Below the pieces are notes generated by a model. It saw only the letters and a list, made by a program, of their open reading frames with translations. It made no database searches and was not told the origin of the DNA. A program made the position numbers and the translations under genes. Shown piece by piece: positions 61,735 to 61,975 of a stretch of DNA of 64,000 bases (the first letter of the stretch is position 1; every line of letters begins with the position of its first letter). This DNA is from a virus (Duplodnaviria; Caudoviricetes), in IMG/VR virus record IMGVR_UViG_3300043395_004688; one strand, written 5' to 3'.

Positions 61735-61894
61735 TTGACAAAAGGCCTCAAGAGGATATATAATAGACTATGATGTTGAATATTGTAAATTTACCAGGTA
61801 ATACAGGTCCAGCCACAGAGGATTCTCTAGGGTCGTAGTCCTCTGCATAAAGCAAAGACAACGGCCCTGGAATTAAAAACTCCAGGGTTTTTTT
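61735..61894 (+). promoter_or_regulatory. Promoter, leader peptide and attenuator upstream of tRNA-Gly
   Basis: TTGACA/TATAAT (61735-61764); ORF 61770-61838 MMLNIVNLPGNTGPATEDSLGS*; mutually exclusive hairpins; terminator CCCTGGA/TCCAGGG+T7 (61865-61894). Confidence 0.7.
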
Positions 61895-61899
61895 ATGAT

Positions 61900-61975
61900 G
61901 CGGGTGTAGCTCAGTTGGTAGAGCACTACCTTGCCAAGGTAGATGTCGAGGGTTCGAACCCCTTCGCCCGCTCCA
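61900..61975 (+). tRNA. tRNA-Gly(GCC)
   Basis: Cloverleaf, anticodon arm CTACC-TTGCCAA-GGTAG, GTTCGAA T-loop, encoded CCA. Confidence 0.97.

Follow-up and report, generated by a model that had tools for sequence, protein, structure and literature searches.

The window analysed here, a stretch of 64,000 nt of viral DNA, is the end of a 177.7-kb IMG/VR record of freshwater origin, the genes of which include a tail sheath, a ribonucleotide reductase and a tRNA cluster. Within this window, a gene for a PP-loop ATPase (60774-61730) is followed, 40 nt downstream, by the start of a short ORF and then by tRNA-Gly(GCC). The features of this leader region, in window coordinates, are as follows.

61735-61764, + strand: promoter P1, sigma-70-type, with -35 TTGACA (61735-61740), an 18-nt spacer and -10 TATAAT (61759-61764), matching the consensus at 12/12 positions
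61770-61838, + strand: leader ORF, putatively leaderless, 22 codons plus TAG (61836-61838), opening with ATGATG at the predicted transcription start
61791-61823, + strand: near-invariant 33-nt block, codons 8-18, encoding L P G N T G P A T E D
61812-61820, + strand: strand 1, GCCACAGAG, codons 15-17, which forms the anti-antiterminator hairpin with strand 2
61816-61822 with 61839-61845, + strand: helix CAGAGGA/TCCTCTG of the original prediction
61825-61836, + strand: strand 2, CUCUAGGGUCGU, codons 19-22 plus the first base of the stop codon, which can pair with strand 1 (through 61825-61833) or with strand 3 (through 61826-61836)
61861-61871, + strand: strand 3, ACGGCCCUGGA, the 3' side of the antiterminator and also the 5' arm of the terminator
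61865-61894, + strand: terminator sequence, consisting of CCCTGGA, a 9-nt loop, TCCAGGG and T7
61881-61894, + strand: strand 4 (UCCAGGG plus one U) and the U7 tract, which with strand 3 make up the intrinsic terminator
61900-61975, + strand: tRNA-Gly(GCC), which heads a tRNA sub-cluster

A permuted (two-piece) tmRNA of the betaproteobacterial type is found at 49408-49762 of the window (RF01850, 114 bits; RF04321, 136 bits). Together with the consensus sigma-70 promoters and a boxA-like element, this tmRNA type suggests a betaproteobacterial host. A megablast search against phage GenBank records returned generic tRNA matches only, and no relatives were found for a 223-aa protein encoded downstream.

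Promoter P1 is one of 15 near-consensus promoters (at least 11 of 12 positions) in the 177.7-kb record, all located on the same strand, where by our own estimate about one match per strand is expected by chance. As originally predicted, the start of this promoter, itself a prediction, falls on the ATG of the 22-aa ORF. An ATG at the predicted +1 is seen at five of the 15 promoters, three of which open ORFs of 138, 327 and 72 aa (the candidate leaderless long-ORF sites being window 52869-53122 and G000:C1 at about 161253 and 137429, minus strand). The start of the 327-aa ORF resembles a 5'-3' exonuclease. Since three long genes of the same phage start at the predicted +1, leaderless translation of the leader ORF is plausible. 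From its sequence, the phage appears to use leaderless genes beside ordinary Shine-Dalgarno genes, and other genes of the record have ordinary Shine-Dalgarno sites.

Relatives were reached via homologues of the PP-loop protein, leading to short metagenome contigs, many of which are broken inside tRNA-Gly. Contigs with a PP-loop protein identity of 83-88% carry the same leader. Pattern scans added L050 and L053 as well as a diverged lineage, comprising L098 (a 285-kb record), the L160-164 group and L162. As a result, ten distinct versions of the unit are available, from two diverged phage lineages found in lake metagenomes and IMG/VR. P1 is kept in all ten, as TTGACA, TTGACT or TAGACT with TATAAT or TATACT, and the leader ORF always has 21 or 22 codons, within the span of about 14-32 codons typical of leader-peptide attenuators. 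In both lineages, 5-6 nt separate the -10 box from the leader ATG, although the discriminators differ and there is a 3-nt in-frame indel, and in both the stop codon (TAG or TAA) directly follows strand 2. The tRNA-Gly(GCC) gene directly follows the unit in 10/10 versions, with upstream genes that differ between the lineages. Further searches had narrower yields: a leader pattern made degenerate at synonymous sites gave no new versions, the leader ORF pattern had no match in 185,579 prokaryote genomes, the exact terminator-plus-tRNA pattern had no match, and a 20-nt ORF pattern matched mostly unrelated genes.

The location of the ORF 40 nt after the PP-loop ATPase gene (60774-61730) might indicate a precursor peptide or micro-protein for an island of PP-loop ATPase and tailoring enzymes, its place before a tRNA being coincidental. 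In favour of this, the peptide core GNTGPATE(D) has a Gly1 and a Glu8/Asp9, which we take to be the arrangement of lasso-type macrolactam rings. However, in the PP-loop groups at 81%, 74% and 60% identity the leader unit is absent and other genes occupy that place, so that no such ORF follows these homologues. Conversely, the L098/L160 lineage retains the leader behind a different upstream gene, without any PP-loop gene upstream. The ORF is also too short to hold a leader, core and tail, and its C-terminal residues change radically where RNA pairs are kept. This explanation is considered highly improbable.

The RNA can form three mutually exclusive helices, 1:2, 2:3 and 3:4, in which strands 2 and 3 are common. 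Their conservation was scored on alignment A2 of the versions, as the percentage of cells paired. The terminator 3:4 (61864-61871/61881-61888) is paired in 100% of the cells, with pair changes from UA to CG in L010 and from GU to GC in L160/L162. Across the versions it has a GC-rich stem of 7-8 bp and a tract of U6-7, located 5-16 nt before the tRNA. In the window, CCCTGGA/TCCAGGG-T7 does end 5 nt before tRNA-Gly(GCC), as had been noted; because these 5 nt between U-tract and tRNA leave no room for a promoter, tRNA-Gly would be made only via read-through of the terminator.

For the antiterminator 2:3, RNAfold on 61770-61899 recovers the alternative helix TCTAGGG (61826-61832)/CCCTGGA (61865-61871) described in the original prediction and lengthens it from 7 to 11 bp (61826-61836/61861-61871), overlapping the stop codon. 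It is paired in 88% of the cells, and three of its pairs vary (AU/GU/GC, UG/CG and UG/CG/UA); pair 98:138, for example, is AU, GU or GC, and pair 102:134 is UG, CG or UA. The anti-antiterminator 1:2 (61812-61820/61825-61833), found by RNAalifold, is paired in 92.5% of the cells. In two of its pairs both bases change (columns 86:97, AU/GC; columns 85:98, CG/UA), and a C.A mismatch is mended on either side in different versions. The helix first put forward, 61816-61822 with 61839-61845, is present in the sequence but not conserved, with 80% of the cells paired and only 5 and then 4 bp left in relatives; the hairpin 61812-61820/61825-61833 is the better supported of the two.

One substitution bears on both states of the switch: T68C in strand 3 of L010 is matched by an A-to-G change in strand 4 and by a G in strand 2, which argues that both alternative pairings of strand 3 matter. 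Substitutions that keep the pairs alter the peptide radically (Thr to Ala or Leu, Leu to Pro). As retaining the pairing costs radical residue changes, RNA pairing outweighs peptide sequence at the C-terminal end of the leader. The pair-change evidence rests on few evolutionary events and its statistics are modest, with weak shuffle controls in which the observed value is reached by 181/500 shuffles for the antiterminator 2:3 and by 34/500 for the hairpin 1:2.

Based on the ten versions, the trp/his-type layout proposed for this locus is borne out, in that a short ORF lies next to the promoter, three helices compete and a terminator stands close before the tRNA. Among 674 tRNA genes in 166 loci, a terminator within 20 nt upstream of a tRNA is found only in this tRNA-Gly family. 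It had been suggested that relatives might carry similar leader/terminator units before other tRNA genes; the window, the region of G001 with its 29 tRNAs and the set of 674 tRNA genes contained none, and no further promoter of the tRNA regions is followed by a leader of this kind. We conclude with good confidence that a conserved terminator/antiterminator unit gates the first tRNA of the phage tRNA array.

Fold energies were examined next to pairing. Six versions have the terminator as their MFE state, and four have the antiterminator. In the window, the antiterminator gain is -13.8 kcal/mol, compared to -4.4 +/- 2.7 kcal/mol for shuffled upstream sequence, with 0.25% of the shuffles being as good (p=0.0025). 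Throughout the window's lineage, upstream pairing of strand 3 amounts to -10 to -14 kcal/mol, a value equalled by 0.25-3% of dinucleotide shuffles, and the terminator hairpin, worth -13.3 kcal/mol, is close in energy to the antiterminator. The gain is weaker in the L098/L160 lineage (-7 to -8 kcal/mol, p=0.08-0.14). Before strand 4 is made, helix 2:3 forms in ribosome-free nascent RNA with a probability of 0.82-1.0 for the window's lineage, compared to about 0.6 for the L098 lineage. Since this RNA favours the antiterminator, termination by default in the absence of translation is not predicted for the window's lineage.

These energies also bear on another explanation, in which the leader is an independent small unit whose RNA of about 120 nt is a small RNA or the mRNA of a 22-aa micro-protein, and tRNA-Gly is made by constitutive leakage. 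A strong promoter, a strongly conserved core (peptide or sequence) and a hairpin ending in U7, as bacterial small RNAs usually do, would all fit such a unit, and there is a precedent in GraL, a leader-terminated RNA from the greA leader with a function of its own (PMC2836576). It would, however, leave unexplained why strand 2 stays complementary to strands 1 and 3 through peptide-altering changes, why the antiterminator energy matches that of the terminator, and why the unit is in every case joined, at 5-16 nt, to the leading tRNA of the array and never to another gene. We regard it as improbable.

To relate the gating unit to translation, a ribosome footprint was masked at each A-site codon and pair probabilities were obtained by partition function, for footprints of +8, +11 and +14 nt. 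P(antiterminator) is about 1 when one of codons 12-16 is in the A site, while from codons 17-18 to the stop P(terminator) climbs from 0.4-0.9 to 0.99. The modelled read-through window moves by one codon with the assumed footprint. In L160, termination is predicted at all ribosome positions at equilibrium. In the model, the ORF is thus placed such that strand 2 is left open by a ribosome that stalls and masked by one that reaches the stop.

Following this model, the host RNA polymerase would start at P1, on or beside the AUG, and a 70S ribosome would load on the 5' AUG and translate the 22 codons. If the ribosome has come to lie between about codon 17 and the stop before the polymerase reaches the U-tract, strand 2 (61825-61836) would be covered and 3:4 would pair, ending the transcript at 61888-61894 as an RNA of about 120 nt. 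With the ribosome absent, late or stalled with its A site up to codon 16, 2:3 would pair and the terminator would be blocked, allowing the polymerase to enter tRNA-Gly(GCC) 5 nt further on and probably to continue. Hairpin 1:2 may tune the ribosome-free default. Given a promoter, a leaderless 22-codon mini-gene and an RNA switch before the first tRNA, slower translation would probably yield more phage tRNA. The locus can accordingly be read as a candidate translation-coupled (leader-peptide type) transcription attenuator heading a phage tRNA array; ribosome control is likely and the best of the explanations weighed, and we hold this reading as a whole to be about as probable as not.

The 33-nt block is a feature that this model does not account for. 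The window and the L098 lineage disagree at one of its 33 positions, whereas tRNA-Gly (judged by eye) and the flanks have strongly diverged, and the block is frozen at synonymous sites too, which points to an RNA-level constraint outside the ribosome model. Synonymous changes across the leader ORF mostly retain the decoding tRNA (GGU/GGC, GAG/GAA, UUG/UUA, AAU/AAC). It is conceivable, though unlikely, that the switch is real but does not involve the ribosome, being operated by a protein, a small RNA, a tRNA or a ligand at the 33-nt block, or by polymerase speed, with an incidental ORF. The block is about 97% identical between diverged lineages, synonymous sites included, the synonymous-degenerate search gave no further variants of it, and the support for the helices is independent of translation. 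An incidental ORF would not explain why the ATG is held at the predicted +1 in both lineages, through a discriminator change and a 3-nt in-frame indel, or why the stop is held directly after strand 2 through a change from TAG to TAA. Searches at E<=1 gave no Rfam match and no T-box, and a pairing of the block with strand 3 is broken and uncompensated in L010. T-box-like logic, using the GGY triplet and UGGA, fails as well, with UGGA lying within a helix and Stem I being absent.

Three candidate elements were rejected. An alternative antiterminator using CAGGNCC of the invariant block is uncompensated in L010, the GGA motifs of a possible CsrA site are not conserved across the versions, and a T-box riboswitch has no Rfam match at E<=1, its UGGA being base-paired in both alternative helices.

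If the ribosome does operate the switch, the codons of the leader would determine what is sensed. According to the original prediction, this is charged tRNA-Gly(GCC), read through the GGU codons 10 and 13, and only a failure to decode GGU would allow the tRNA to be made. Both codons are indeed GGU in the window sequence. Codon 10 is GGU or GGC (GGY) in 10/10 versions, both read by a GCC anticodon, and codon 13, GGU in the window's subgroup, lies in the middle of the modelled read-through window. However, codon 13 specifies Ala (GCA) in L025/L026/L050, and in L098/L160/L162 it is GGA, a codon of tRNA-Gly(UCC). Codon 10, for its part, is not within the read-through window with any footprint from +8 to +14 nt. 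The leader has no run of Gly or of any other single regulatory codon, the hallmark of classical attenuators. The control window reads N-T-G/A-P-A-T, with at most one Gly codon among its five or six codons, and its invariant codons are ACA, CCA and GCC. Sensing of that same tRNA-Gly is not supported by these data, and we give it little credence.

The leader codons were also compared with the tRNAs of the array. In G001, tRNA-Gly(GCC) is the first of 12 clustered tRNAs, with 17 more after 8.5 kb. The order of the sub-cluster is Gly-GCC, Glu, Leu-UAA, (Asp, Met), Ala, Val, Thr, (Met), Pro, Gly-UCC, Asn, and the gene order is the same in L050 and L166. When compared with the 11 tRNA species of G001, 17-18 of the 21-22 leader codons match, against a gene background of 42%, and 10-11 of the 11 species are covered by leader codons; the empirical P for both measures is about 0.001-0.009. 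If the comparison is limited to the nine species known from the window's own lineage, the matches number 14-15 of 20 leader codons, against 34% (P=0.0004-0.002). With the amino acids given, synonymous codon choice adds a small extra match (P=0.01-0.05). All these P values overstate the support, since the idea was formed after the data had been seen.

Tentatively, then, the leader ORF may be a 'test track' that polls the codons of the phage's own first tRNA sub-cluster, making the unit a homeostatic multi-tRNA attenuator on stable-RNA genes. The codons on this track would be those of Leu-UAA, Pro, Gly-GCC, Asn, Thr, Gly-UCC, Ala, Glu, Asp, Val and Met. If any of these tRNAs ran short, either early in infection, before the phage tRNAs accumulate, or after a tRNA-cleaving defence of the host, the ribosome would be slowed, the antiterminator would persist and the tRNA array would be turned on, whereas ample supply would turn it off. 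The overall decoding speed over the sub-cluster codons is a more likely sensed quantity than Gly-tRNA(GCC) alone.

A second promoter lies between tRNA-Gly and tRNA-Glu, with the following features.

62004-62032, + strand: promoter P2, 11/12 match, followed by a hairpin
62060-62071, + strand: boxA-like element GCTCTTTGACAA, after P2 and the hairpin and ahead of tRNA-Glu

We take GCTCTTTGACAA to be close to the rrn boxA, and G001 has the boxA-like TGTTCTTTAAAAA at the same place before tRNA-Glu. A 9-codon ATG ORF at the +1 of P2 (62039) was considered as another attenuator and rejected, no terminator being present after it. Contigs from four metatranscriptome runs do not cover the leader, show no transcript ends there and mainly represent tRNAs of other organisms. 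One exact RNA-library contig spans tRNA-Gly to tRNA-Glu, where DNA carry-over is possible. Three lake RNA libraries contain contigs with 3-9 differences over window 62045-62331, which includes tRNA-Glu and a 158-nt spacer before tRNA-Leu, and one RNA contig of a related phage starts at 62045, 6 nt after the predicted P2 start. Based on the contigs over 62045-62331, the 158-nt spacer RNA is probably transcribed, with DNA carry-over being possible.

The terminator hairpin with its 9-nt loop, CCCYGGAA-N-TAAAAACTCCRGGG followed by a T-run, also occurs elsewhere, in at least 92 IMG/VR contigs (L068-L159). There it closes other transcription units; its contexts include the ends of a 133-aa CDS and of a conserved RNA-like element, and it precedes a tRNA only in the tRNA-Gly family. 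The loop sequence is kept across unrelated contexts in many lake phages. One copy is present in the phage's own 177.7-kb record, and among the 185,579 prokaryote genomes the hairpin is found only in two contigs of one MAG. The RNA-like element, which resembles a structured RNA, is conserved over about 120-150 nt and has the form ..GCCTGGTCACRYGCC..TATGGTCGC..GGGTCY..AAAGACCC.., has this hairpin at its end and neighbours tRNA arrays in at least 20 contigs of lake phages, for example at L079:880-1044 and in L083, L084, L095 and L116 (about 4100-4292); it matches no Rfam family at E<=0.001. GOLLD RNAs (199-213 bits) adjoin large tRNA arrays at L083:10884-11346 (- strand) and L116:3393-3857 (+ strand), both contigs sharing the hairpin. 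No GOLLD RNA is found in the window's own record.

Among known systems, the leader resembles the attenuators of enterobacterial amino-acid operons (trp, his, leu, thr, ilv, pheA) and of pheST. It shares with them the promoter-adjacent short ORF, strand 1 within this ORF and the stop beside strand 2, the exclusive helices 1:2, 2:3 and 3:4, and an intrinsic terminator just before the first structural gene; as proposed here, the position of the ribosome would pick the helix in the phage unit too. In contrast to these attenuators, it gates a phage tRNA rather than a biosynthetic or synthetase gene, its ORF has no Shine-Dalgarno site, starts at the predicted +1 and lacks a run of a single codon, and the predicted default of the untranslated RNA in the window's lineage is not termination.

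Leaderless starts have a parallel in mycobacteria, where, as outlined in bioRxiv 10.1101/834739, leaderless polycysteine short ORFs act as translation-dependent attenuators of downstream Cys-related operons. Like the phage unit as read here, these have a leaderless short ORF at the 5' end of the transcript; as outlined there, however, they use runs of Cys codons and belong to Actinobacteria, whereas the phage has mixed codons, a tRNA array and probably a betaproteobacterial host.

T-box riboswitches are alike in tying the choice between terminator and antiterminator to tRNA status, and the GGY triplet and UGGA of the phage leader could match the anticodon and the UCCA end of tRNA-Gly. Unlike them, the leader has no Stem I, specifier loop or T-box sequence, its UGGA is helical rather than bulged, and read-through on uncharged tRNA would mean positive feedback for a tRNA gene. 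The rrn-type boxA/Nus antitermination leaders similarly control read-through into stable-RNA genes, but the phage leader has an ORF and an intrinsic terminator instead of a boxA.

To our knowledge, little has been described of how phages control their own tRNAs. The original prediction knew of no described translation-coupled attenuator of a phage tRNA gene, and in agreement with this, no report of a leader-peptide attenuator on a tRNA gene, whether of a phage or of a cell, was found in the literature searched.

So far, phage tRNAs have been seen as a means to supplement codon supply and to replace those host tRNAs that defence nucleases cleave (PMC10264068, PMC11464382). If translation does run the switch described here, attenuation would extend to stable-RNA genes and to leaderless mRNAs in a probable proteobacterial host, with a sensor of a mixed codon set rather than of a single amino acid. 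The unit would then be a compact natural part of about 165 nt reporting translation speed and, given its consensus sigma-70 promoter and intrinsic terminator, it may be testable directly in E. coli.
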